Of a stretch of 64,000 bases of DNA, positions 33,282 through 64,000 are shown piece by piece (the first letter of the stretch is position 1; each line of letters opens with the position of its first letter). The notes below the pieces were generated by a model. It was not told the origin of the DNA, did no database searches, and saw only the letters and a list, made by a program, of their open reading frames with translations. The translations under genes and the position numbers were made by a program. The DNA is from a virus. Its lineage: Duplodnaviria; Caudoviricetes. The DNA lies in IMG/VR virus record IMGVR_UViG_3300021400_000012, positions 63,575 to 127,574 of that record, one strand, 5' to 3'.

Positions 33282-34208
33282 ATGACAAAACGACTTATTG
33301 CAATAGTAATATTGGTTCTTTTTGTTTTAGGAACAATTTTACTTAGTTGTAATTCTGGATAGCCATAGCGTAATTTAATTCCAGAAGAAATAGATTCAAC
33401 TACTGATGTTCCCGCAACAGAAGAACTAACTTATGTTGAGGTAGAAACAAGTACGGAAGTTGAAACTGAAGAAACTATTTATACTGAAATTGAAGAAACT
33501 ACTACAATCAAAATTGAGACTAAAACGGAAGAACCTACAACGGTACCTGAAGTTATAAAAACACAAATGTGGACTGCGACTGCAGTATATTTTAGAACAG
33601 GACCTGATACACATTGTAATTATTATCAAACACTTACAAAAGGAACTGAAATTATTGCACTTGATTTTGATTGGAATAATGAATGGACGCAAGTTTATCA
33701 TAACGATAATGTCGGATATATTTATACTGAATATCTAGATGAAAATTTTGTAAATAAGTACGATTATTACTATATTAATTATGGTAATCAGATTGAAAAA
33801 CTTGATCCTGCATTACAAGAATATGCGCAAGATATTCTAGACGAGTGGGGTTGCCGCGACTTTTTTAAATTTTTCTTATGCCAAGCATATCAAGAATCAC
33901 ATTATAATATGAATAGTGTGGGTAAGATGCATGGCGGCTACTATGACTATGGAATTATGCAAATTTGGGAAGGTCACGTTTATAATAAAAATTCTTTTTG
34001 TTATAACATAATACAAGAACACCCTAACTATAAAATAAATCCATACGACAATATTTATGTCGGTTTGTGGATGTGGCATGAATGGTATAAAGTTACGGGT
34101 GATTATATTACAGCTTTAGGTTGTTATCTGAGTGGAACCACTACACCTTCTCAAACTTATATTAATTCTGTATTAGGACATATGAATTATTTATCTTTAG
34201 TACAATAA
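33282..34208 (+). CDS. Lipoprotein with SH3b and lytic transglycosylase (SLT-like) domains
   Basis: Signal peptide with LLSC lipobox, then two TAGs; T/E-rich linker; VYFRTGP...GYI SH3; QES...YGIMQI. Confidence 0.75.
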
Positions 34209-34306
34209 AATTTAAGGTACATAAGAGTGCTGACCTGGTTATTGCACTTAATACTCGACCAATCGCGCGAAAACAAATCTTATGTATTTTAATTTTTTGA
34301 AATTAA

Positions 34307-34380
34307 TGGGGCGTAGCTCAGTTGGTGAGAGCGTCGGCCTTATAAGCCGCAGGTCATGGGTTCGAATCCCATCGCCCCTA
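34307..34380 (+). tRNA. tRNA-Ile(UAU)
   Basis: Loop CT TAT AA; U1:U72 mismatch. Confidence 0.8.
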
Positions 34381-34489
34381 TTAAAATTTGATTTTTTTAT
34401 AAAAATCATATATAATATATACGTAATAAAAATAAAGGAGTACTTATCATGAGGCGAAAACGCAAGTATCATAAACAAATTGAATATTT

Positions 34490-34561
34490 CCGTCAGTAGC
34501 CAAGTGGTATGGCAGCGGGCTTTTAATCCGTTCATCGCAGGTTCGAATCCTGTCTGGCGGA
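34490..34561 (+). tRNA. tRNA-Lys(UUU)
   Basis: Loop CT TTT AA. Confidence 0.85.
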
Positions 34562-34564
34562 CAT

Positions 34565-34636
34565 GCCTGATTCGTCCAATGGCAGGATAGCAGACTCTTA
34601 ATCTGTAAGCTCTCGGTTCAAGTCCGAGATCAGGCA
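34565..34636 (+). tRNA. tRNA-Lys(CUU)
   Basis: Loop CT CTT AA. Confidence 0.85.
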
Positions 34637-34641
34637 TTTGA

Positions 34642-34684
34642 ACTCCAGTAGCTCAGTGGACAGAACAACGGTCTTCTAAACCGT
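34642..34684 (+). pseudogene. Truncated tRNA-Arg(UCU), 5' half only
   Basis: Acceptor 5' strand, D arm and ACGGT-CT TCT AA-ACCGT present; no T arm or 3' acceptor strand. Confidence 0.7.
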
Positions 34685-34716
34685 TTTCCTACTTATAAAT
34701 TAAAGGAGTAAAAACA

Positions 34717-34866
34717 ATGACAATTTAGGATAAATTAGTTATTTTATATCTGCGGCGCAATAAACTTGAAGCTAATGGAAAAAATTTCAAAAGTCCTGGT
34801 GTTCTGCGGAAGGTAAATCGGCAGATTCGTAATTTAAATGATAACGTAGGTGCTTCAAACCATTGA
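34717..34866 (+). CDS. Small basic protein
   Basis: SD AAGGAG; MTI(TAG)DKL...KSPGVLRKVNRQIRNL. Confidence 0.55.
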
Positions 34867-35158
34867 TAAATTTAAGATGGCAGATCCAGTTAATATAGAA
34901 TCTAAATATATGAATGGTGATTGCTATCCATTTGCTAAAGCTTTAGTTAAAAAGTTTCAAGGTACATTATATTATTTGCCAGTTGATAATCATTTTGTAG
35001 CTTATATTGATGGTCATTTTTTCGACATACGTGGGCTACTTACTGAAGACCAAGTTAGTCCAAATTTCACTTGGTCCGAATATTAGTTAATTGAGCCATT
35101 AGACGCAGAACGAACTAAATATTATTGTATTCGTGGGAAAGAAAATTTGGAGCTTTGA
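34838..35158 (+). CDS. Hypothetical protein with possible Cys-His-Asp triad
   Basis: YMNGDCYPFA...HFVAYIDGHFFDIRG; 2 TAGs. Confidence 0.6.
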
Positions 35159-35246
35159 AAAATTGAAAATTTTTTAAATTTTTGGTATACTATTTATATA
35201 AGATAAAAAGAGAAATAACTCTTAGAAATCTTATAAAAAATTAAGG

Positions 35247-35284
35247 TTCTTAATTTTGACAAATTAAGAAACTTTTGATATAAT
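35247..35284 (+). promoter_or_regulatory. Consensus sigmaA promoter with palindromic operator over -35
   Basis: TTGACA-17-TATAAT with TG; TTCTTAATTT-tgac-AAATTAAGAA inverted repeat. Confidence 0.75.
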
Positions 35285-35290
35285 TATTAT

Positions 35291-35510
35291 ATAAAATCAA
35301 GAGGGTATTTTATATAATCTTTCTTCCTTTCTTTTGACAAAAATCCCTTGGAAGCGCATATCATTTATTGTATCCCCTTCTTGTCTTGTGGGTATGGCTT
35401 TTATGTAAGTTATGGGATATGCGGTGTAACTTACTTTTTATATTGGATCGACAGAGTTGCTTTTCGGCAACTCTCTCCATCCTTATTCTTATCTTTATTT
35501 TCCCCTTTTA
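35291..35510 (+). ncRNA. Candidate anti-Shine-Dalgarno sRNA (or long 5' UTR)
   Basis: No ORF; three hairpins with C/U-rich loops including TCTTCCTTTCTTTTGA. Confidence 0.45.
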
Positions 35511-35571
35511 TTTTTAAAATTTAATAAAATAAAAAAATAGGGTTAATATCCTATTTTATTTGCGTACGAAA

Positions 35572-35952
35572 ATGGCTTATATATTTTATAATTCAAACCC
35601 AGAACATATAATTGTGGGTGATTGTGTCATACGTGGAATTAGTGTTCTTACAAGCCAAACCTGGAATGACGTTTATATTGCCCTATGTAATGAAGGTTTA
35701 CTTATGCATGACATGCCTTCTTCAAATGCCGTATGGGGCTCTTATTTAATAAAAAATGGATATGTTAGACGAATAATTCCCAATACTTGCCCACAATGTT
35801 ACACAGTAGAAGATTTTTGTTTAGATCATCCATTTGGAAAATTTTTACTTGCAACAGGAACGCATGTCGTTGCGGTCTAGAATGGAAATTATTTTGATAC
35901 TTGGGATAGTGGTAATGAAATTCCAATTTACTATTTTAAAAAGGAGGAATAA
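35572..35952 (+). CDS. Putative papain/C39-like peptidase-fold protein
   Basis: GDCVIRG...HVVAV(TAG)NGNYFDTWDSG. Confidence 0.7.
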
Positions 35953-35955
35953 ATA

Positions 35956-36375
35956 ATGGCATATGATAATTATTATAATAATGCTAATCCATATATGTAT
36001 TCACAGGCTTATTAGGCGCCCGCGCTATAGAGGCAAATGATTTCACCGAATCAAAATTTACAAATTCAAAATGGTGGTTTTGTGTCTGTACGTAGTGAAT
36101 AGGAAGCACGAAATTATCCTGTAGCGCCAGGTAATAGTGTTACTTTTAGGGATGAAACTGCTCCGTATGTATATACTAAAACTATGGGCTTTTCTCAGCT
36201 AGACAGGCCAGTGTTTGAAAAATATCGACTTATAAAAGAAGAAATTCCAGAAGAACGCACCCCTACTAACTCAATAGACAATAATTTTCAAAAGAAATTT
36301 GAAGATGAAATTAATTAGATTTGGGAGCAAATAAAAATTTTAAAAGAGTCTAAGAAAGAGGTGGTAGAAAAATGA
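35956..36375 (+). CDS. Conserved-looking Clostridia phage hypothetical protein
   Basis: Q/Y/N-rich N-terminus; VRSE(TAG)EARNYPVAPGNSV. Confidence 0.7.
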
Positions 36376-36590
36376 TAAATTTATTTAATTTAATGTAGAT
36401 GTATCAACAATTTCGTTAGAATCCTATACAAATGTTATCAAGGCGCTTTAATATTCCTCAGACTATGAATAATCCACAAGAAATTATTTAGTACTTATTA
36501 AATTCAGGATAGATTACTCAAAATCAGGTCAATCAAGTAATGCAAATGCGAGAAGACCCGCAAATCCAATAGTTATTTAATATGAAGTAA
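36372..36590 (+). CDS. Gln-rich small protein
   Basis: NNPQEII(TAG)YLLNSG(TAG)ITQNQ; 5 TAGs. Confidence 0.7.
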
Positions 36591-36673
36591 AAGTCGGTGC
36601 ACAGGCTTTTATAATAAACGGATTACATATAGAATGTAATTCTTAACCTACAAAAATTATAGGAGGTAACATT

Positions 36674-37435
36674 ATGTCTTTATCTGAAAATGGAGGCACA
36701 AACGGTTTCTATATGCCTGTAGCTCCCGCTTATGCAGGAAGTTTTGGCGGCAACAGTTTTGGTGGCGGTTTTGGCGGCGACTGGGGCTGGATTATTCTGC
36801 TTTTACTTTTTGCAGGCGGCGGCTGGGGTAATGGTTTCGGCGGAGGCAATCTTGGCTATGATTTCCCATGGCTTATGACTGGCCAGCAGAATATTAACTC
36901 TAATACAAATGGCGGTTTTAGGGACGCAATGCTTAATGATGGTATTACTTCCATTCGCGACGGTCTGAATGATTTATCTACTCAGATTTGTAATAGTGGC
37001 TTTAATACTCAGACAGCATTGTTATAGGGCTTTAATAGCTTACAGGCCCAACAGGCTCAGTGTTGCTGCGACAACAGAGCAAGCATCGCCGATTTAAAGT
37101 ATACTGTAGCTACTGAAGCTTGCGCAAATCGCTCTGCTGTAAATGAGGCCCTGCGGGACGTGTTGGCAGCAAATACAGCATCGACCCAACGGATTCTTGA
37201 TCAGCTTTGTGCTGATAAGATTGAACAGAAAAATGATACGATTGCGCAGCTTCGCTCCGAACTTATGTATGCTCGCGGGCAAGCTTCTCAAGATGTGCAG
37301 ACTGCTGCAATTCAGGCTGGTCAGCGTGCTCTTGCAAACGAAGTTGAACAATATGTCTTACCAACCCCACGTCCAGCTTATATTGTTCAAAATCCAAATT
37401 GCTGCTACACTAATACTTGTGGCTGCGGCATGTAA
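36674..37435 (+). CDS. Gly-rich TM / coiled-coil / Cys-tail protein
   Basis: Joins two track ORFs through a TAG; GGDWGWIILLLLF, AQCCCDNR, PAYIVQNPNCC...CGCGM. Confidence 0.8.
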
Positions 37436-37449
37436 TTGGAGGCAGCGCT

Positions 37450-37914
37450 ATGGCAGAATATTTAACAAGAGATACGGTTGAAAGTGTAGCTTTAAATACT
37501 GCAATTCCGTTTATTGATTCTATTCCCTGCAATAAAGGATATATATATCATTAGAGTGGTACGGGAATTTTTGTTCTGCGTGGTATTGTAAATAATCCCA
37601 ATGCTTGCTTCGCGCGGTATGAGGTTGAATTTACTGGCAATATCGCAATTCCAACTGGCGGCGCCGTAACTCCAATAGCTACAGCTATTATTGTGTCGGG
37701 AGAAGATCGACAAGGAAGTAGAAGTATTTTTACTCCCGCAGCGGTAGATGAATATGGAAATGTAACCAGTCGTGCCACAGTAGATGTTCCTCGTGGATGC
37801 TGCTTTACGGTATCTGTAGAATATGTAAGCGGAATAGTAAATGATCCAACCACCACACCTACCCCATTAATTAATGTAATTGATGGAAGTTTAAGTATTT
37901 CTAGAGCAGCTTAA
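37450..37914 (+). CDS. Beta-sandwich protein, possibly BclA C-terminal/C1q-like
   Basis: SD GGAGG; H(TAG)SGTGIFVLRG...YEVEFTGNI; alternating beta pattern. Confidence 0.65.
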
Positions 37915-37929
37915 AAAGGAGATTAAAAG

Positions 37930-38373
37930 ATGAAAGCTATGAAAGAATTAAAGTATCTTCTGGAAGAAGAGCTTGAAAAAATTGTTAGAAAAGGCGACAT
38001 CACTCCTACTGAACTAGAACGAGTTGACAAAGCGATAGATATTATTAAAGATATTGAGACGATCTGCGCCATGAAAGAATATGGGTATGAAGATGAAGAA
38101 GGATATTCTGAACGCTATCCTTATTATATGAGAGATGGCGGTTCTTATTCAATGCGTGATAATAGTTATCGTCGTGGGAGAGATGGCATGACTGGCCGCT
38201 ATATCAGTAGAGATATGGATCCCCGTTATTATGGAGATGGGCGGTCATATGATTATTCTGGACATGCCAGCAAAGAAGATTTAAAAAAGGATTTAAAAGA
38301 GATGATGACTAATACAAGCTCTGATAAAGAGCGTATGGCCATTCAGCAACTCCTGGAACAATGGAAGGATTAA
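37930..38373 (+). CDS. Hypothetical protein (RGRDxxGRYxSR motif)
   Basis: Intact ORF, followed by terminator GTAGAGGCGG/CCGCCTCTAC. Confidence 0.75.
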   Translation: MKAMKELKYLLEEELEKIVRKGDITPTELERVDKAIDIIKDIETICAMKEYGYEDEEGYSERYPYYMRDGGSYSMRDNSYRRGRDGMTGRYISRDMDPRYYGDGRSYDYSGHASKEDLKKDLKEMMTNTSSDKERMAIQQLLEQWKD

Positions 38374-38421
38374 TAAGGGTAGAGGCGGTTTTCCCGCCTC
38401 TACTTTTAAATTTTAATCTAT

Positions 38422-38554
38422 TTTAAAATTTGAAAAATATTTAAAAATATTATATAATATATATACAAGATGAAAAGAAAAACAAATAAAAAGTTTTAAA
38501 AAATAAAGACCTTTAAAATTTGAAAAATATTTAAAAATATTATATAATATATAT
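38422..38554 (+). promoter_or_regulatory. Tandem duplicated promoter upstream of large ncRNA
   Basis: 43-bp identical repeats at 38422 and 38512, each TTGAAA-17-TATAAT. Confidence 0.8.
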
Positions 38555-38594
38555 GTAAGATGAAAGAGAAAGTACTTTGAAAAATATATAATTA

Positions 38595-39130
38595 CAGTAA
38601 CTCAGTGAAGACCGAAAGCGACTTTCGGGCTGAGATGGGGCGGCAAGGCTACCGTAGGACACGAAGCAAGGATACTTGCGGATATTGCGGGTGTATGTAA
38701 TGTGAATTACATACCCAAGCGGAGAGAACTCCCACTAGTCACATTGCCCCAGTACTGAAGTTAATTGCCGATAAAAGTAGGATACGAGTGGGCGGTGTAA
38801 TAGAAAGCAAGTTGAATAGACTTGCCGAATCCAAGTTAGGCTCGGACGGGTGGTGCCGAAAGCAATCCTTGGAAACTTACCAAACAAACCGTTGCGCAGT
38901 TGAAATAATCACTTGTATGCAACTCCAAGTAGCGGAAATCTGCGGTGCAAATATTAGCAAGTATGGCGTGCGTGTGAACGTTAAAATTCCTCTGAACGTC
39001 CCGTGAAAGGTAGAAGTAATCAATCTTCTTATGGATTAAAGGTGAAGAACCTGTGTCCGTGGAAAACGGACGGGGTAAGAAGCTATGGGGTAGCTCCCCA
39101 TGTCTCAGACTTATCTCCCATATAGCCAAA
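38595..39130 (+). ncRNA. Probable ROOL large ornate RNA
   Basis: ~540 nt, non-coding, GC-richer, many stems; 5' CTGAGATGGG can pair with 3' CCCATGTCTCAG; blocks GTACT..AGTAGGATACGAG, GAATCCA, GCTC...AGAC..ATC resemble ROOL as recalled; adjacent to tRNAs. Confidence 0.65.
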
Positions 39131-39694
39131 TATATCGACATTAAATGGCAGCAACGCGAAGGCGTACAGTAATTATATATTTTTGAGAGTACATTCTCTC
39201 ATGGAAGTAAAATAAAGTGCGACGGTGCTTTAGGGTATAAGTTGGCTGATTAGTAGTTGTACGCAGCATGAATTTGATTTCCCACGCTGGACGTGGCGGA
39301 ATTAATCTTGTTCGTAATAAGGCCCGAAGCAAGAGGTGGACTATTATTCCACAACTCTTCCTTATATCCACTTTTATAATGTATCAAGATCAACATTGGC
39401 ATGCTGGCAATAAAAAAGCCAATGAGATGTTGTGCCTAGCACGGGGATGGGAGAGCGATGCTCCCAATAAGTGCCATCCATATGAGCGCAAAAAATACTG
39501 GCGATAAAAAAGGGACGCCATAAGAAAACAACAGAAGATACTAAAAAAGACGATAGGTCTATAAACTTCTGGCTGCGACCAGATCAACCGCACGGAGTAA
39601 CTCCAACCGCGTCCATCCTGGCTCGGTATATAAACGCATCGGGAGAGCAAGGAAACTGTATTTAGGAAAACCATTAGGGAGTACGTAATCCCTA

Positions 39695-56252: not shown

Positions 56253-56514
56253 TCTATATACCTTCCTTTCTTTTGGTAGCTTTATTATAGCACATTTTAA
56301 GAGGATTGTCAAGGGGTTTCTCAAATTTTATTGTACAATTATTATTTTGAGTGTTTGGGAAGCCCTTGTATACCCACCTTTGAAACTCTTCCGCAGAAGG
56401 TTTCGGTCTATCTCCCCTCGACACTATATATAATACCACAAAAGCCGAGAAAAGTCAAGTGCTTTTTAAAAATTTTTTAAGTTAGCATAGACTAACTTTG
56501 CCCGGGCGGTGGGG

Positions 56515-57153
56515 TCACTCATAGAGTGCCCCATCAACTACACCGCGCCGTCTACACTCGATTAAAATTTCTTTTTCAATCAGCACATCATCAAGACCTT
56601 TGTGAACTTCTTCAAAATCGTTTTGACCGCTGATAAACCGATAGAGGACTTCTGCAGTCATTTTGTACTGACCTCTCGGCGTTTTATAATTGTTTGTGTC
56701 GCAAAAATCGCGGTATTCGGAATCGTTGCCGAAAGCTTTTCTTGCCATTTTTAACGTGTCGCAGATTTTCGAGCCATACGGCAGAAAGTACCGATATTTT
56801 GAACCGCTGATGAAACGCTGCGTAAGCTTGAGGCTTAAGTCATCAAATCTTGCGTTGTGAGCGTAAATTTCTGTGACCCCATAGGCTTCACAATCAGCTT
56901 TAAGAGAGCGATAAATCGTGCTCATGCGCGCGAGCTTGCGGTCGCCGTTTTTGATTTCGTCCCAGTACTGCGGAATCTTCTCAGCAAAATACGCCTGCTC
57001 CATCAGCTCTTTGTCAAGAAAAATTTCAGCAACAGCGTAGCTTTCCGTTTTTAAGACTTCGCCATCTTCATCAATAACCGCCCACCCAATATCATATGCA
57101 AGCGGCTCTTCAAGACCGTTGGTCGCCTCAGTGTCAAGTACCAAAAAATTCAT
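56515..57153 (-). CDS. DEDDh 3'-5' exonuclease
   Basis: VLDTE, AHNARFD, HKGLDD. Confidence 0.85.
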   Translation of the reverse strand: MNFLVLDTEATNGLEEPLAYDIGWAVIDEDGEVLKTESYAVAEIFLDKELMEQAYFAEKIPQYWDEIKNGDRKLARMSTIYRSLKADCEAYGVTEIYAHNARFDDLSLKLTQRFISGSKYRYFLPYGSKICDTLKMARKAFGNDSEYRDFCDTNNYKTPRGQYKMTAEVLYRFISGQNDFEEVHKGLDDVLIEKEILIECRRRGVVDGALYE

Positions 57154-57264
57154 TTTTAGGACGCTCCCTTCATTTGATAGATTAAGTATATCACAAGACA
57201 CGAAAAAAGTCAAGAAAAATTTTTTATCATTTTTTCCGATTTGCGCCCGGGCAGAAGAAGAGGA

Positions 57265-57438
57265 TTACTCCTCTTCGACGCCTTCACATTTAAAAGCGGG
57301 GTACTGTAAAATGTTCTTCCATCTTATAGATGTATCATCTTGAATGTCGCCTGCCCATTCATAAAAAATATCCTGCGCTTCATCACGATTTTTTGCTTCA
57401 ACAACAATCCAACCTTCAAAATCTACTACGTATTTCAT
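57265..57438 (-). CDS. Small early protein
   Basis: SD AGAAAGGA; VEAKNRDEA. Confidence 0.55.
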   Translation of the reverse strand: MKYVVDFEGWIVVEAKNRDEAQDIFYEWAGDIQDDTSIRWKNILQYPAFKCEGVEEE

Positions 57439-57735
57439 TTTTGGTTTCCTTTCTGCGCTCGATTTCTGCGACAATCTTTTTATACATATATTCTAAATAC
57501 CAATCGTCCCAAAGTTGGATATCATCATAAGTTTCCATTGTGTTTCGCCTTTCTTTATTCGTGCATTAAATAAAACTTCTGTATTCTTCCGTCATAATGA
57601 TATATAATAATGACTTCAAAAGTTTCACTTCCGTGGATTTCTTCCGTGATTTCATAATCTTTAATAAATGTCATATTTGTTTTTCCCTTCTTTTGATAAA
57701 CTTATTATAACATATCTTGTTTTATTTGTCAAGTC

Positions 57736-57930
57736 TTAATTTGCATATTCTTCATCAATTACTACAAAATGAATTTCATATTCTTCGTGGTTAGAATTTT
57801 TTTTACCACAATCATCAATCCAATAATCTTGGTCTATAACATTTTGTGCTTTTTCAGAAGTAGAAAAAACTCTCATAAAAGTTTGTAAAGTGTCTCCCCA
57901 AAGGTTATCATATCCAAGTAAAACGTACAT
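57736..57930 (-). CDS. Small early protein
   Basis: Own TTGACA..TATAAT promoter and SD. Confidence 0.6.
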   Translation of the reverse strand: MYVLLGYDNLWGDTLQTFMRVFSTSEKAQNVIDQDYWIDDCGKKNSNHEEYEIHFVVIDEEYAN

Positions 57931-58035
57931 TTTTGTTTTTTCCTTTCTTTTGATATATTTATTATACATCTTTGGAGTGTATTTGTCAACAGTTTCTTTT
58001 TGTTATTTTTTCCGATGCGCCCGGGCAGAAGAGGA

Positions 58036-58230
58036 TTACTTCTCTTCTACCTCATCAATTCCTTCTTCATCGCAAAAAGCAACAAAAATTTCTCTTGAAG
58101 TGCTATTTACGTATTCAGTTAATTCTTTACTAGACATAGCTTGAAAAATTTCACTCTGACAAACAGTACGACAAAGAGTGTAAGCAACAATGTCCATCAT
58201 TTTCATAGCAGTTTCTAATTTAATGTTCAT
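58036..58230 (-). CDS. Small early protein
   Basis: Own promoter and SD. Confidence 0.6.
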   Translation of the reverse strand: MNIKLETAMKMMDIVAYTLCRTVCQSEIFQAMSSKELTEYVNSTSREIFVAFCDEEGIDEVEEK

Positions 58231-58328
58231 TTTCAGTATTTCCTTTCTTTTGATGATTTAATTATAGCACACTCTTTTTTATTTGTCAAGTAGTTTTTTT
58301 AAAAAAATGTCCGGGCGCCAACATTTGG

Positions 58329-58571
58329 TTACATTTCTTCCCAAGTGTCAGTATACCACGCCCACGAATATGGATTACCTTCAACATCGGCAGTTTCGCT
58401 TAATTCAATTATATGCGCTGGACGACCACTTTCAAAGCGACCTTTTCCCCAAATAGTCGTAATATAATCTTCCTCCCAAGTTGTGTAACCCATTTCGGAA
58501 GCAAACCTTTTAATAATTTCAATTCTCTTCTCTGCGAGTTTCTTTCGTTCTTCTTTTTTTGTTTTTTTCAT
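58329..58571 (-). CDS. Small early protein
   Basis: Own promoter and SD. Confidence 0.6.
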   Translation of the reverse strand: MKKTKKEERKKLAEKRIEIIKRFASEMGYTTWEEDYITTIWGKGRFESGRPAHIIELSETADVEGNPYSWAWYTDTWEEM

Positions 58572-58854
58572 TTTCGGAAATCGCCTTTCTTTTGATGGAT
58601 CTATTATACCATATCTTTTTTTATTTGTCAAGTAGTTTTTCAAAAAATGCCCGGGCAGTGGATGTCTATTTATATTTTAATTCTACATTTTTTCTTCGGT
58701 CGTATGAAAATGTTGAAAATTATTTTGAATACAATCGAACGCAAAGAAACAGTAAGGAACGTTATCAAAATTATTATGTAACAAACTACATTTATTACAA
58801 ATTGAACAATTTTTAATAGTATTTTTTAAATATTTATCAAGAATAATTTCTTTT

Positions 58855-59049
58855 TTAGTCATTTTTTATCTCCTTTCTTTTTGTATCAATTAAATATTGC
58901 GGCCAAATCCTATAATCGTCGGCATCGAATTGTGCCGCCACATACCGTTTCGCGGCTTCATGTTCAGTGAATACTGCAATATCCTCAAGATCGTTAGAAT
59001 CGGAGTTGACTAAATAAACTACATAAATCGCTTTGCTAAGGTCAGTCAT
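58855..59049 (-). CDS. Small early protein
   Basis: Own promoter and SD. Confidence 0.6.
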   Translation of the reverse strand: MTDLSKAIYVVYLVNSDSNDLEDIAVFTEHEAAKRYVAAQFDADDYRIWPQYLIDTKRKEIKND

Positions 59050-59395
59050 TTTTTTGTTTCCCCTTCTTTTTTGTAAATTTATTATATCATAAGACTTAAA
59101 AATTGTCAAGAGGTTTTTAAAAATTTTTCAGTTTAAAAAATTTCAAATGCTTCGTGTAATCCGCACTCATACTCATCGATCCACTTGTTAGACTGCGGAA
59201 AAGTATCAAGTATTTTTTGTGTCTTTTCTCGATCTAAACCTACACATACAACATCGGCATAATCGTTTAATACCACACCTACATAAATTGTCATTATATC
59301 AAGTCCTTTCTATTTTTTACACTATTATTTTATCAAATTTTTTCTAATTTGTCAAGAGGTTTTTAAAATTTTTTGACCGGGCAAAAAGAAGAGGG

Positions 59396-59767
59396 TCACC
59401 CCTCTTCTTTTGTCTTACGCTCGGCTTTTGCTTTCGCGCGTGCTTCGCGCACCGCTTTGTCGTGTTCGATTTTCTCCGCTTTCTTCTTTGCGGATTCTTT
59501 TGCTTTTTCCATTTTTTCCTTGCACTTCATTTCGTACTCTTCGGCGAGTGCATAACCATCGTATGCGTCACCATCGCGCGAACCAGTGGGAACTTTGAAC
59601 GTAATCACAAGAAATTCATCGTTTCCCTCTTCATCAAGACAAGGGATACAGATTTCATTCGAACCAGTTACAAGAACCTCTTCGTCCTGTGAATGAAGAT
59701 AGTCACTAATAAGGTTCAGATAACGATAACGGAGTTTTTCGTTCAGAGATTTTTTGGAAGTTGCCAT
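59396..59767 (-). CDS. Early hypothetical protein (paralog of 55881-56252)
   Basis: TGSNEICIPCLDEEGNDEF...KVPTGSR...YDGY. Confidence 0.75.
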   Translation of the reverse strand: MATSKKSLNEKLRYRYLNLISDYLHSQDEEVLVTGSNEICIPCLDEEGNDEFLVITFKVPTGSRDGDAYDGYALAEEYEMKCKEKMEKAKESAKKKAEKIEHDKAVREARAKAKAERKTKEEG

Positions 59768-59974
59768 ATTGTTTGCTCCTTTCTTTTTACAAGTAGATTA
59801 TATCATAGATATTGGGATTTGTCAAGTCTTTTTTCAAAACTTTTTTATTTTTTCTAAATATATTATATAAAAAAATTATAAAAATTTCAAATTTTATTTT
59901 GTCCGCGCCCGGGCGAGTTAGCCAGTGCTAACTCGCGCGATTAAAAAGAGGGGAGCCTTGCTCCCCTCGTTTGG

Positions 59975-60319
59975 TTACTGCGTGATAACCGTGTAACCCT
60001 TGCACTTGCCCTTGCCCTTGACCTTTACATCGTGGACTGCGACCTTGCCGCTTGCCGCGAGCTGCTGAAGCAGAGCAGACGCTTTCATCGTGGTTAAGTT
60101 GAGCGTGGCACCGACCTCAGCGGCGGTCTTCGGCTCAGCGGTCAGAATACCTACGATTTCAGCCTTAATCGGCTCATTCGCAACCGCTGTCTTGGACGGA
60201 GTAGCGGCGCGCTTCGCGTTGCGCCTATCGAGCGCGGCGACCATTTCCTTCGCCTGATTCGTCATTTCTTCGGAAAGGTTAGCTTCGATAACAGTGTTAA
60301 GGAATTCACGAGTAGTCAT
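59975..60319 (-). CDS. Winged-helix DNA-binding protein
   Basis: REFLNTVI...EPKTAAEVG...KASALL.QL..SGKV...VKVKGKG; preceded by three tandem promoters. Confidence 0.7.
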   Translation of the reverse strand: MTTREFLNTVIEANLSEEMTNQAKEMVAALDRRNAKRAATPSKTAVANEPIKAEIVGILTAEPKTAAEVGATLNLTTMKASALLQQLAASGKVAVHDVKVKGKGKCKGYTVITQ

Positions 60320-60863
60320 TTAGTACCTCTTTCTCGCTATTAGGTTGCGACCCTTAAGTTTTTTTGCTTGAGAGTTTATCTCTCTTTTGTGCCTTTATTA
60401 TAGCACACTTTTTTGAGTTTGTCAAGAGTTTTTTGAAACTTTTTTATTTTTTTAAGTGCTTCTTTTTTCTCGCACGCTCTTGACTTTTTGTACCTTTATT
60501 ATAGCACATTCTCTTGAAGTTGTCAAGGGGTTTGGGTGTGCTATTATCGCTTCTTACACCACGTGGGGTATTAGCCCACCGATAGTCTTGCGAGGATTCT
60601 ATCTTCTTCTCTCTCCCCTTGACAATACATAGTATATCACAAGACCCCGAAAATGTCAAGTACTTTTTTAAAAAATTTAAAAAAGTTTAGTTAGGCGCGG
60701 CTAACCGCGCCCGGGCACGAAAAAGCGCCCTACTCGTCGAGTTGGCGCCCTTTATGTTTTTTATATTTGCTTTCGATGCATTCGTGTTTGGTTTTTTCAT
60801 AAATTGGGGAAAGTCCAACAAAGGTGGGACCGCGGTCGGTTTTGTTGTTTGATTTTTTCTTGC

Positions 60864-61304
60864 TCATTTCAACCCCCTTAAGATTTCGAGAATGTCATCT
60901 ACATTATGCGCGATGCCTTGCCAATCATTACGATTTTTTTCTTCATCATCGAAGAGAATGTCATTTTCGGAATGTCTGAACAAGTCTTTTAAGGTTCCGT
61001 ATGCTACGATGTTAATTTTCTCAAATTTTACGCTTTTGAGATGAGTGCGGAGCCATTTAATTTTGGCGGCGGCGACTGCTTCATCATATTCGGTGGTCGA
61101 GTTCTTAGCCGTCCAAGAAATTATTTCTACAGCATAGCCGTTCTGCGTTAAGCGGTTCAGCCGACGAGCCAGTACCTGCAGGTTGAGGAGCGGGCGCGCG
61201 TTTTCATACGGATAAGTATCGAAAGCGCGGAGATAATCAAGCCAGTTTTCTACTCCGTAGAAGTCTGCAATTGTGCCGTCCATATCGAAGAAGATTGTAG
61301 TCAT
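60864..61304 (-). CDS. HAD-family 5'(3')-deoxyribonucleotidase-like protein
   Basis: FFDMDGTIADF, K..WL..H, ILFDD...N..W. Confidence 0.8.
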   Translation of the reverse strand: MTTIFFDMDGTIADFYGVENWLDYLRAFDTYPYENARPLLNLQVLARRLNRLTQNGYAVEIISWTAKNSTTEYDEAVAAAKIKWLRTHLKSVKFEKINIVAYGTLKDLFRHSENDILFDDEEKNRNDWQGIAHNVDDILEILRGLK

Positions 61305-61534
61305 ATTGGAATGTCCTTTCTTTTTCTATATATACTATATCACATTAAGATAAATTTGTCAAGTGTTTTTTCAAAAAAATTTTGCCCGGGCGCTTAGTGT
61401 TTTTTATGGGAAAGAATTAGACCTGCGACAATACCAACTAACAATATGTCACAAATTAAGCCTAAAGTTTGCGGTCCGCCTGCGGCATTTGTCGAAAGAT
61501 GGTTCATTATTAAGTAAAACATTTTTTGCTCCTC

Positions 61535-61780
61535 TCAATAAAACTGTGCAAGAAGATATACATTTAATGTAATGGTTGCAAGGTGCATTAGCATTTCGTT
61601 GATATGTCGATTTTTATTTGAAAGGTCTTTGATAAAGCCAAACGCCGCGATAGCAAGCCCCAAATAACAAGCGACCATACCAAAACAGATAATGCCCAAC
61701 ACATTTGCCAGTGTACAAAGCGCGCGAATATCGTTCCATTCAAAATGATAAGTATCAGATAGATTAAAAAAGCGTTTCAT
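61535..61780 (-). CDS. Small membrane protein
   Basis: Hydrophobic helices, own promoter. Confidence 0.6.
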   Translation of the reverse strand: MKRFFNLSDTYHFEWNDIRALCTLANVLGIICFGMVACYLGLAIAAFGFIKDLSNKNRHINEMLMHLATITLNVYLLAQFY

Positions 61781-61866
61781 ATTTGTTACCTCTTTCTTTT
61801 CTATATATACTATATCACAATTTTATAATTTTGTCAAGCAAAATATGAAAAATTTTTGGCCCGGGC

Positions 61867-62100
61867 GCGACCCCACGACAGTACTATCGTGGAGTCGTTT
61901 TGAATGGCTCTGCTCCGTCCATCCGAGGCGGTCGGCCAACTTGGCGGACTGTGCCATCCTCGGCATCTTTGGTCTACTGATTTATAACGCGGGTGCCCGT
62001 CTAACGTGGTCGACTTGTGACCTTTGACTTTGTGTCTACTGCGGGTCTGCGGAGAGTGACCAAGTCACCCCGCGGGTTTTAAGTTTTCCTTCTCTTTTGT
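61867..62100 (-). ncRNA. Candidate structured ncRNA cassette
   Basis: Three tandem promoters upstream, no start codon after the purine-rich leader, GC-rich stems, terminal CGACTCCACGA/TCGTGGGGTCG hairpin. Confidence 0.5.
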
Positions 62101-62488
62101 GGTTTAAGTATAGCACACTTTCTGAAGTTTGTCAAGGGGCAATTTCATTTTTTTGAAATTCTTTAATGAGTCTTTCAAGTTCTTTGCTTTCTGTTTTCCC
62201 TTGTCGACTTTGGTCTCTGTCTGCTGAACTTGAGTGTCTCTCCCCTTGACAACTATAGTATATCATACCCCGAAGGGTTTGTCAAGGGGTTTTGAAAACT
62301 TTTTTCGGATTATTTTACACCGACCATTAACCCTCAAGGAGTGGCTCTCTTTCGCTCGCCGTTCTCATTTCCCCTTGACAATATATAGTATATCACAAAC
62401 GCATTTAAATGTCAAGTGTTTTTAAAAATTTTTTTCGAGGGCGCCCGGGCATCGCCGTGCCTTCTAAAGTTATTTGACGGGACGCGGG

Positions 62489-62950
62489 TTATTTGTTCCG
62501 CATCCTCGCCAAAGTTTTTTCGTTGATGAAAGTTGCCTTTTCGTATTTGATTTGATAGGCAACGCCGTCGACGGTCAAGTCGCCGTCTTCTGTAAAGGGA
62601 ACATTGTCTTTTGTCCAAGTCTGCCCGTACCATTCGGTGACCAGTTTTTCGAAAATCTCGCCTGCGTTGTACTTGCTATTTGCGACGCAAGTGTCGAAAT
62701 ATTCTTTTGAGCAAAGGGCAAAAGTCGGAAGCACTCGCATATAGGCTTTCTGTGCCTTGTTGGGTTTGTAGCGAAGTGCAAAGCCTGCGCCACGACTTGC
62801 GCTATCCAGTGTGCAGATATAGGGGAGATCATTCGCCGTACCGATTGCGCAATAGATAGTGCCGTTATCGGCATAACCGAACATATATTCGTGCGTGTAG
62901 GAAAGTGCGTTGTAGTTGTCGATTAAGGACTTGAAAATCGTGGTGTTCAT
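62489..62950 (-). CDS. Hypothetical protein, PD-(D/E)xK-like
   Basis: NAGEIFEKL...GDL...YQIK. Confidence 0.6.
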   Translation of the reverse strand: MNTTIFKSLIDNYNALSYTHEYMFGYADNGTIYCAIGTANDLPYICTLDSASRGAGFALRYKPNKAQKAYMRVLPTFALCSKEYFDTCVANSKYNAGEIFEKLVTEWYGQTWTKDNVPFTEDGDLTVDGVAYQIKYEKATFINEKTLARMRNK

Positions 62951-63145
62951 TGCGGTGTTCCTTTCTTTTTTCTAACGATAGTATACCATGGAAAGTTAAG
63001 TTTGTCAATAGTAAAATTGAAAAAATAAAAAAAATTTTTTTTCGAAAAAGTACTTGACAAGTTCCCTTCGGTATGGTAAAATGTTAGTGGTGGAAAGGGT
63101 CGCGCCAATATTGCCCGGGCACGATGGCAAGTTTAAAGGGTGGAT

Positions 63146-63313
63146 TTACATCCACCCTTTCCACGATTCAATTGCGTTTAAGGCAACTTTCTTGGCGCTA
63201 AAACTTGCCAATGTGCGCTCTTCGGTCTCTTTGGTGACCGCGATTGCGTACCATTTTTTGCCGACCTTCTGTAAAAAGAAGTTGTGGGTTTCGTTCGAAG
63301 TGATGTAAGTCAT
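63146..63313 (-). CDS. Small early protein (55 aa)
   Basis: Own promoter and SD; MTYITSNETHNFF. Confidence 0.55.
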   Translation of the reverse strand: MTYITSNETHNFFLQKVGKKWYAIAVTKETEERTLASFSAKKVALNAIESWKGWM

Positions 63314-63379
63314 TTTGTGTCTCCCTTTCTTTTGATAAGTCTATTATAGCAGACTTTGCCCGGTTTGTCAATAGGTTTT

Positions 63380-63790
63380 TTAAACTTTTTTGTTTTTTAA
63401 TTCTGCAAGCCACTCTTCAAGGGAAGCAATTTGTTTTTCAAGTTCTGCAATCTCTTTTTTGTATTGCTGAATGGCGTGACGTGTATTATATTCTTCTCTT
63501 GTCATGCCATGTTTTTCATAGAACGTTTTATTTTTTAGTTCGACAATTTCTTTTTCGATTGCGGTTTCGTCAATCAGATTTTTAAGGATTGCTTCCCGTT
63601 CGGCTTTTTCTTTTTCTTTGTCTTCGGGAGTTGCATATTCGAAATCATATCCGCGGTCATGCATCGCGCAATCGGTATAAACTACTTTGGTGGCATATTT
63701 GCCTTCCATTTTATAATAAGTATTGAAAATTTCTTTGTTGATTGCTCTTGCTTCGTTCAGTTCGGCGGTGAGTTCCTTAACGGTCTTCAT
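63380..63790 (-). CDS. Coiled-coil early protein
   Basis: Own promoter and SD AAAGAAAGGA. Confidence 0.7.
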   Translation of the reverse strand: MKTVKELTAELNEARAINKEIFNTYYKMEGKYATKVVYTDCAMHDRGYDFEYATPEDKEKEKAEREAILKNLIDETAIEKEIVELKNKTFYEKHGMTREEYNTRHAIQQYKKEIAELEKQIASLEEWLAELKNKKV

Positions 63791-64000
63791 GATTTATATC
63801 TTCCTTTCTTTTGATGACTAAAGTATAGCATAGATTTCCGGATTTGTCAATAGGTTTTTAAAAATTTTTTGCCCGGGCAGCGACGGAAAATCAAAACTCC
63901 CGTGGAGTTGTCCACGGGAGGGAGGGGAGGTCGCGTTCTGCCGATTTTTCATTCCCCTTGTCGGCTCTGCCCACTGATTTGTTACACGGGATTGGTCTTA

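Follow-up and report, generated by a model that had tools for sequence, protein, structure and literature searches.

The plus strand upstream of a 126-aa Cys/His protein gene in this rumen phage carries a predicted non-coding RNA. Whatever its targets, its core, a pseudoknot, represents a conserved RNA fold that is new. Within the phage's clade (clade A), the best single explanation for this RNA is that it represses early mRNAs in trans, a reading that we hold tentatively and with slightly more doubt than belief. Consistent with such a role, the open loops of the clade-A RNAs carry 12–18 nt exactly complementary to the short leader that 12 early genes share, over its full length from the predicted transcription start up to and including the Shine-Dalgarno (SD) sequence.

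The window, the whole 64,000-nt stretch of DNA that was analysed, is the right half (positions 63575–127574) of a 127,574-bp virus record bounded by 107-bp direct terminal repeats. The phage has 23 tRNA genes, including a suppressor with a CUA anticodon, and a ROOL RNA at 38577–39184. Its sigma-A promoters, strong SD sites and ROOL RNA suggest a Firmicute-type host. The surroundings of the element are a tRNA/ROOL RNA island of rumen Firmicute-type phages that is home to several unexplained RNAs. Judged from its reading frames, the phage's code is TAG=Q: reading TAG as Q merges the local frames near 35 kb into sensible genes, and the same code ('with_TAG=Q') applies to the translated homologues of the gene next door. 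Under this code, the candidate element sits in a 413-nt gap between a YunG-like gene and the 126-aa gene, with the following layout:

34838–35158, 5′ of the element: YunG-like gene (Pfam PF24591), with its true end at 35158 under TAG=Q
35163–35191, plus strand: upstream promoter-like site, TTGAAA-17-TATACT with TG
35247–35270, no strand: perfect 10-bp inverted repeat, TTCTTAATTT (35247–35256) and AAATTAAGAA (35261–35270) flanking TGAC, over the −35
35256–35284, plus strand: sigma-A promoter, TTGACA (35256–35261), 17-nt spacer and TATAAT (35279–35284) with a preceding TG (extended −10), 12/12 match
35291–35565, plus strand: predicted non-coding RNA of ~275 nt, its start placed 7 nt past the −10 and its end at the U-tail of the last hairpin
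35534–35565, plus strand: weak terminator-like site, an A-tract, a 10-bp A/U-rich hairpin (−9.2 kcal/mol) and UUUUAUUU, ending 7 nt short of the 126-aa gene's ATG
35572–35952, 3′ of the element: 126-aa Cys/His protein gene, the first of a six-gene module of unassigned function

The first-pass annotation had described a perfect sigma-A promoter with a 10-bp inverted repeat over its −35, driving ~280 nt with no open reading frame (ORF). The promoter is as described and also has the TG extension; it is of the same type as the promoters of the early genes (TTGACAAA..TGnTATAAT). The repeat is present and perfect as well; it is a possible operator and is not conserved in the relatives. The ~275 nt of the predicted RNA contain no credible ORF under table 11 or TAG=Q, just TTG frames of 49–58 aa without an SD, and the element region has zero TAG on both strands. 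A small-protein reading was rejected, as no frame is conserved across the versions of the element. The 5′ end of the RNA (35285–35306) reads AUCAAGAGGG after the early-type promoter and resembles an early leader. Its SD-like GAGGG forms the 5′ strand of hairpin P1 and, in the minimum free energy fold, has an alternative partner in the C/U-rich tail at ~35498–35510, a modelled pairing that hints at alternative conformations. The 126-aa gene of the window has no recognisable SD (35560–35575); its homologues in relatives have GGAGG-type sites.

Metatranscriptome contigs from four rumen runs were compared with positions 33500–39500, and none covered 35291–35565, which, these being contigs, has no bearing on expression. 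Identical contigs of ~470–560 nt matched the ROOL RNA (38605–39163) in four rumen metatranscriptome runs from three studies, and the segment just 3′ of it (39228–39500) was also present in RNA contigs of two runs. Right after a tRNA-Lys pair, positions 34633–34798 are exactly one 166-nt metatranscriptome contig, with no obvious gene under table 11.

The 126-aa protein has ~1,600 homologues, the closest of which share gene order, and a long non-coding spacer lies 5′ of the gene in a subset of these closest loci. We identified seven distinct versions of the element in four clades; each precedes the 126-aa gene, in rumen phages related to one another. Clade A comprises the window and loci L100, L110 and L113 (the three loci known from contigs of 3.4–5.9 kb), clade B comprises L103 to L105, clade C L008 to L014, and clade D L114 and L115. 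The first protein-based loci (L005–L007) were dismissed as unrelated phages. Two further loci have another non-coding stretch 5′ of the 126-aa gene (L101:2034–2500, 467 nt; L111:275–667, ~390 nt). This stretch is richer in G+C, lies behind a promoter, is conserved between both loci and has no match to Rfam or to our covariance model R1; it may be another candidate RNA.

The predicted fold of the RNA in the window consists of the following parts:

35301–35349, plus strand: hairpin P1, GAGGG (35301–35305) with CCCUU (35345–35349) plus UUUU/AAAA, and a 28-nt pyrimidine-rich loop
35350–35354, plus strand: conserved junction motif GGAAG (clades A, B and D have GGAAG or GGAAAG)
35355–35362, plus strand: 5′ strand of pseudoknot helix S1, CGCAUAUC
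35374–35392, plus strand: weak hairpin P3, CCC/GGG with a C/U-rich loop
35405–35434, plus strand: hairpin S2, GUAAGUUAU/GUAACUUAC, 8 of whose 12 loop bases (35416–35423, GAUAUGCG) make S1 with 35355–35362
35453–35474, plus strand: G+C-rich hairpin, in the window only, then a C/U-rich tail to ~35510

The core is a hairpin-loop/5′-strand pseudoknot in which the S2 loop pairs with a strand ~50 nt upstream (S1). It recurs in all clades with an S2 loop of 12–17 nt, 5–8 bases of which pair just past the GGAAG motif, 14–42 nt upstream of the hairpin. Almost every version has its own S1 sequence, and the pairing is kept, as in CGCAUAUC/GAUAUGCG, CGCGUAUC/GAUACGCG and CGCAUAAC/GUUAUGCG and, in further versions, CACGCAU/AUGCGUG, CGUGUAC/GUACACG and CGCGCGU/GCGCGCG. 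S2 is invariant inside clade A and altered yet still paired in clades B, C and D, and the P1 stem also co-varies in the relatives (GAGGGC/GCCCUU, GAGGGAC/GUCCCUC, AGCCGC/GCGGCU). Among the seven distinct sequences, 79.7% of the cells were paired versus 71.1 ± 1.7 in shuffles (26–62% in slid registers), 10 pairs had changed on both sides versus 3.6 in shuffles, and the covariation score was 0.373 versus 0.209. MAFFT puts clade C two columns out of register in the alignment used for counting, which makes the pair count conservative; a six-sequence realignment was poorer than the MAFFT alignment and was left out of the counts. RNAalifold predicted S1 independently. Furthermore, the G-U pairs in P1 and S2 fit the plus strand only and would be A-C on the other strand, which makes plus the folded strand, in agreement with the promoter. 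The compensatory changes in two helices thus indicate that the element is a real conserved structured RNA; the statistics are modest at seven sequences, and the pattern is consistent.

Searches with Rfam 15 of the window region returned a best E-value of 3.2, with all hits on the minus strand and far below gathering, and in the seven homologous loci Rfam matched tRNA and tmRNA elsewhere only. The element therefore falls outside the RsaE/RoxS and RNAIII family models, and it is an RNA family not yet catalogued. Exact and gapped DNA patterns of the core had no matches in viral, metagenome and genome contigs. The covariance models R1 and R2 recovered just their training members among 174 loci and no member in 50 related IMG/VR records searched in full. 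An nhmmer search with the element of the window gave no matches, and the 80 IMG/VR plus 80 metagenome loci that surround homologues of the gene were all without the element. Between element and 127-aa gene, locus L114 has an 81-nt Rfam tmRNA match (L114:922–1002; 54 bits, gathering score 47) limited to the tRNA-like domain.

The sequence that links this RNA to the early genes is a seed, hereafter the anti-leader, whose complements are distributed as follows:

35320–35337, plus strand: anti-leader seed, of which 16 nt (35322–35337) exactly complement the leader at 63799–63814 and 18 nt exactly complement a leader of the related genome G001
56262–63814, minus strand: early cassette, 10 units of promoter, (A)UCAAAAGAAAGGAAGA leader and ATG, with 2 more past the genome end
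63799–63814, minus strand: exact seed complement in an early leader, 16 nt
56262–56275, 57940–57953 and 58240–58253, minus strand: exact seed complements in early leaders, 14 nt each
58584–58595, 62958–62969 and 63324–63335, minus strand: exact seed complements in early leaders, 12 nt each
58871–58881, 59777–59787 and 61314–61324, minus strand: exact seed complements in early leaders, 11 nt each, beyond those of the first-pass annotation
Genome positions 1366 and 2248: seed complements across the terminus, 13 and 12 nt

The 16-mer TCTTCCTTTCTTTTGA (35322–35337) lies in the P1 loop (35312–35339), where the first-pass annotation had placed it. All of the matches that it had reported (the 16/16, 14-nt and 12-nt sites) were reproduced and five more were added, so that the claimed complementarity to minus-strand early mRNA leaders at their SD is exact over 11–16 nt in 12 leaders. 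Seed complements of at least 11 nt located 9–15 nt before an ATG-started frame are 12 in number, and all 12 are in the early cassette that spans the genome ends. A plus-strand match of 11 nt that precedes a TTG frame (48748) was discounted as spurious. Each early unit has its own TTGACAAA-N-TGnTATAAT promoter ~7 nt before the leader and its ATG 6–10 nt past it; the leader UCAAAAGAAAGGAAGA is thus essentially the whole 5′ UTR. Further C/U-rich stretches follow the first loop, in the P3 loop and in the tail, and the RNA, like those of the RsaE/RoxS and RNAIII types, has C/U-rich motifs complementary to the SDs of several mRNAs. The genes of the early cassette are small orphans beside the 107-bp terminal repeat, one of which resembles a 5′-3′ deoxyribonucleotidase (phrog_2643).

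The fit between loop and leaders exceeds chance. The window has 10 matches to the seed at up to 3 mismatches versus 1.5 expected, and the P1 loop forms duplexes with the 10 window leaders at a mean of −18.45 kcal/mol, an energy reached by none of 300 loop shuffles (−7.7 ± 1.45 kcal/mol); the canonical anti-SD reaches −11.3 kcal/mol with the same leaders. As a caveat, a genome-wide duplex scan also found purine-rich sites outside the leaders whose energies match or surpass these (−28 to −23 kcal/mol). The predicted unpaired probability of the seeds in clade A is moderate (0.40–0.63).

An anti-leader of 12–18 nt is present in all four clade-A members, in loops that differ: the window and L100 carry it in P1, L113 in P3 and L110 in both, the P3 copies being 13–14 nt long. 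Averaged over the 21 leaders of this phage and G001 together, the longest uninterrupted complement measures 13.6 nt in the window (maximum 18), 12.0 nt in L100, 12.5 nt in L110 and 12.3 nt in L113, versus 5.5–7.4 nt in shuffles. The CUUUUGA extension is kept in three of the four members and occurs twice in L110. That the sequence is kept though the loop shifts points to selection on the sequence itself, as would be expected of a pairing seed. Conservation of the anti-leader extends no further than clade A. Clades B and C have the generic anti-SD UUUCCUUUCUU/UUCCUUUCU alone, a match of ~10–11 nt that is borderline versus shuffles, and clade D (L114) retains the core with a small CCAUA loop, zero anti-leader and no C/U-rich loop. 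The presence of the core in all clades and of the anti-leader in some indicates that the core has a role of its own and that the anti-leader is a clade-level feature.

A scan of IMG/VR with the leader 16-mer returned almost solely single scattered matches; the informative exception was G001, a 119,955-bp genome whose 126-aa protein is 71% identical. G001 has 11 early units with the near-identical leader AUCAAAAGAAAGGAAGA (G001:74138–83680, L198). Neither the element, by covariance model search, nor an antisense copy of the leader was found in it. A genome with the same leaders and without the RNA indicates that the RNA is accessory and dispensable for early-gene control.

In the mechanism that we propose, the RNA would be made from infection onward and would accumulate through its tight folding. 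It would pair with early mRNAs and cover their ribosome-binding sites (RBSs), the RNA-leader duplexes would probably become substrates of double-strand RNases, and early protein synthesis would be damped or shut off as a result. The weak terminator before the 126-aa gene would free a promoter-proximal small RNA, with some transcripts reading on into the operon, and the pseudoknot core would be a scaffold and stabiliser or a protein-binding handle. In its fullest form, a pseudoknot-held RNA with one or two seeds would act via the entire shared leader to switch off, or to time, the early regulon of its own phage as a whole, which is possible, though we lean against it. The shut-off of a whole early regulon suggested in the first-pass annotation stands in part. 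In its favour are the anti-leader in clade A and the restriction of RBS-positioned complements to the early cassette; against it are the absence of the RNA from G001, the L114 element without a C/U-rich loop, and a promoter of the same class as those of the targets, which leaves no built-in delay evident. Trans repression as such is also weakened by these points, as well as by the generic anti-SD of clades B and C, the purine-rich sites and the middling accessibility of the seeds.

The position of the element is compatible with another role, as a cis-acting leader of the downstream six-gene operon, which we consider unlikely. The pseudoknot would then respond to a ligand, protein or physical signal and control either how often transcription passes the terminator-like hairpin or how accessible the operon RBSs are, with the C/U-rich loops as internal anti-SD strands. 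The same gene is downstream in all seven versions. In all four clade-A members the element has the operon promoter on one side and the 126-aa gene on the other, and no promoter-like site separating element and gene was noticed when the sequences were read by eye. The site at 35163–35191 corresponds by eye to the operon promoter right before the 126-aa gene in the element-free loci L015 and L021, and would be the ancestral operon promoter, kept upstream of the element in the window. The clade-A element is physically part of the operon's 5′ region and may be a 5′ UTR or a UTR-derived RNA. A hairpin directly precedes the gene start in all clade-A and clade-C versions, but U-tails follow just three of these weak A/U-rich hairpins (window, L100 and L008), all transcript ends being predicted from sequence; the last hairpins of L110 and L113 have no U-run, and the element there would simply be the operon 5′ UTR. 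On the other hand, a separate promoter lies between element and gene in L103 and L114, and >500 nt of other RNA, including the tmRNA-like tRNA domain, intervenes in L114. The element is thus not an obligatory leader, nor is it always directly upstream of the gene and co-transcribed with it. Relatives also run the same operon from an 83-nt spacer (L015 and L021), riboswitch families had zero matches in Rfam, and no alternative terminator/antiterminator or SD/anti-SD pairing was found. The loops of the window and L100 pair poorly with the adjacent RBS (−4.5 and −8.2 kcal/mol), versus −16 to −20 for the early leaders, a point for trans repression and against the cis role. In L110 and L113 pairing with the adjacent RBS is stronger (−13.2 and −18.1 kcal/mol), and some of the operon's RBSs are good partners for their loops (−24.3 and −18.1 kcal/mol), which favours the cis role. 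In addition to the 12/12 promoter in the window, promoter-like sites lie directly upstream of the element in L100, L110, L113, L008 and L114. The free-standing small RNA of the first-pass annotation survives as a conserved, structured plus-strand RNA with its own promoter that may nonetheless be an operon 5′ UTR.

The loops could also be general mimics of the 16S rRNA 3′ tail attached to a core whose function (protein binding, RNA stabilisation or ligand binding) has no connection with the early genes. Such loops would target any strong SD, host or phage, or bind a pyrimidine-binding protein, and would fit the early leaders only through these being extended strong SDs. The core is indeed the sole part common to all four clades, clades B and C retain UUCCUUUCU only, and many non-leader purine-rich sites pair equally well. 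The L110 and L113 loops carry CCUCCUUU, which would match the 16S rRNA 3′ tail of Firmicutes in general. Yet 5–6 nt of the match lie outside the SD, in the UCAAAA with which the leaders start, the CUUUUGA extension persists in three of the four clade-A members, and the canonical anti-SD is far weaker on the leaders (−11.3 versus −18.5 kcal/mol). We rate this explanation as quite unlikely. Far less probable, to the point of being hardly credible, is that the element has no function and that the 16-mer is a low-complexity coincidence or the relic of a rearranged early promoter-leader unit, with the rest a spacer. The region is A/T- and C/T-rich, and the early-leader look of AUCAAGAGGG behind an early-type promoter would suit a relic; against this stand the two helices with compensatory changes in four clades, the conservation of the seed in four diverged members, and the pairing that 0 of 300 shuffles equalled. 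A minus-strand relic gene at the leader-like string was specifically rejected, as both an upstream promoter and a downstream start codon are absent and no minus-strand ORF lies beside it.

Trans repression of the early mRNAs, our preferred reading, has parallels in several known systems. RsaE/RoxS, S. aureus RNAIII and Listeria LhrC are Firmicute small RNAs whose C/U-rich loops pair with the SD regions of many mRNAs. The phage RNA similarly has several unpaired pyrimidine-rich loops and a multi-seed design, with two anti-leader loops in L110. Unlike these RNAs, it is phage-encoded, is built on a pseudoknot core and has no match in Rfam; its proposed targets are its own early regulon, reached via a shared ~25-nt leader, and its matches are perfect over 12–18 nt rather than short C-rich seeds. 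In the c4 antisense RNA of phages P1 and P7 (Rfam C4) and the sar RNA of P22, loop pairing blocks the RBS of one phage gene transcribed from the same region. The RNA described here is likewise a phage RNA proposed to block RBSs by loop pairing, but it has 12 dispersed targets 21–28 kb away and no sequence or model match to c4 or sar. The element thus works like the C/U-rich-loop small RNAs and the c4-type antisense RNAs and is a member of neither family. Listeria SreA and SreB are riboswitch-derived, promoter-proximal terminated small RNAs. Like them, the element is a structured leader that ends at a terminator just before a gene and could act both in trans and in cis; unlike them, it has no recognisable ligand-sensing family, and its termination is not conserved in all versions.

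To our knowledge, the shut-off of early expression in large virulent phages has been described for a few model phages only, and there by proteins. In phage T4, the endoribonuclease RegB and the repressor RegA are proteins that inactivate many early mRNAs via their ribosome-binding sites. The logic proposed here is the same, with an RNA as the effector in place of a protein. If the preferred reading is correct, an RNA with loops complementary to the leader that a dozen early genes have in common would offer a simple and evolvable alternative to protein-based shut-off, and this off-switch RNA would be the RNA counterpart of T4 RegB and RegA.
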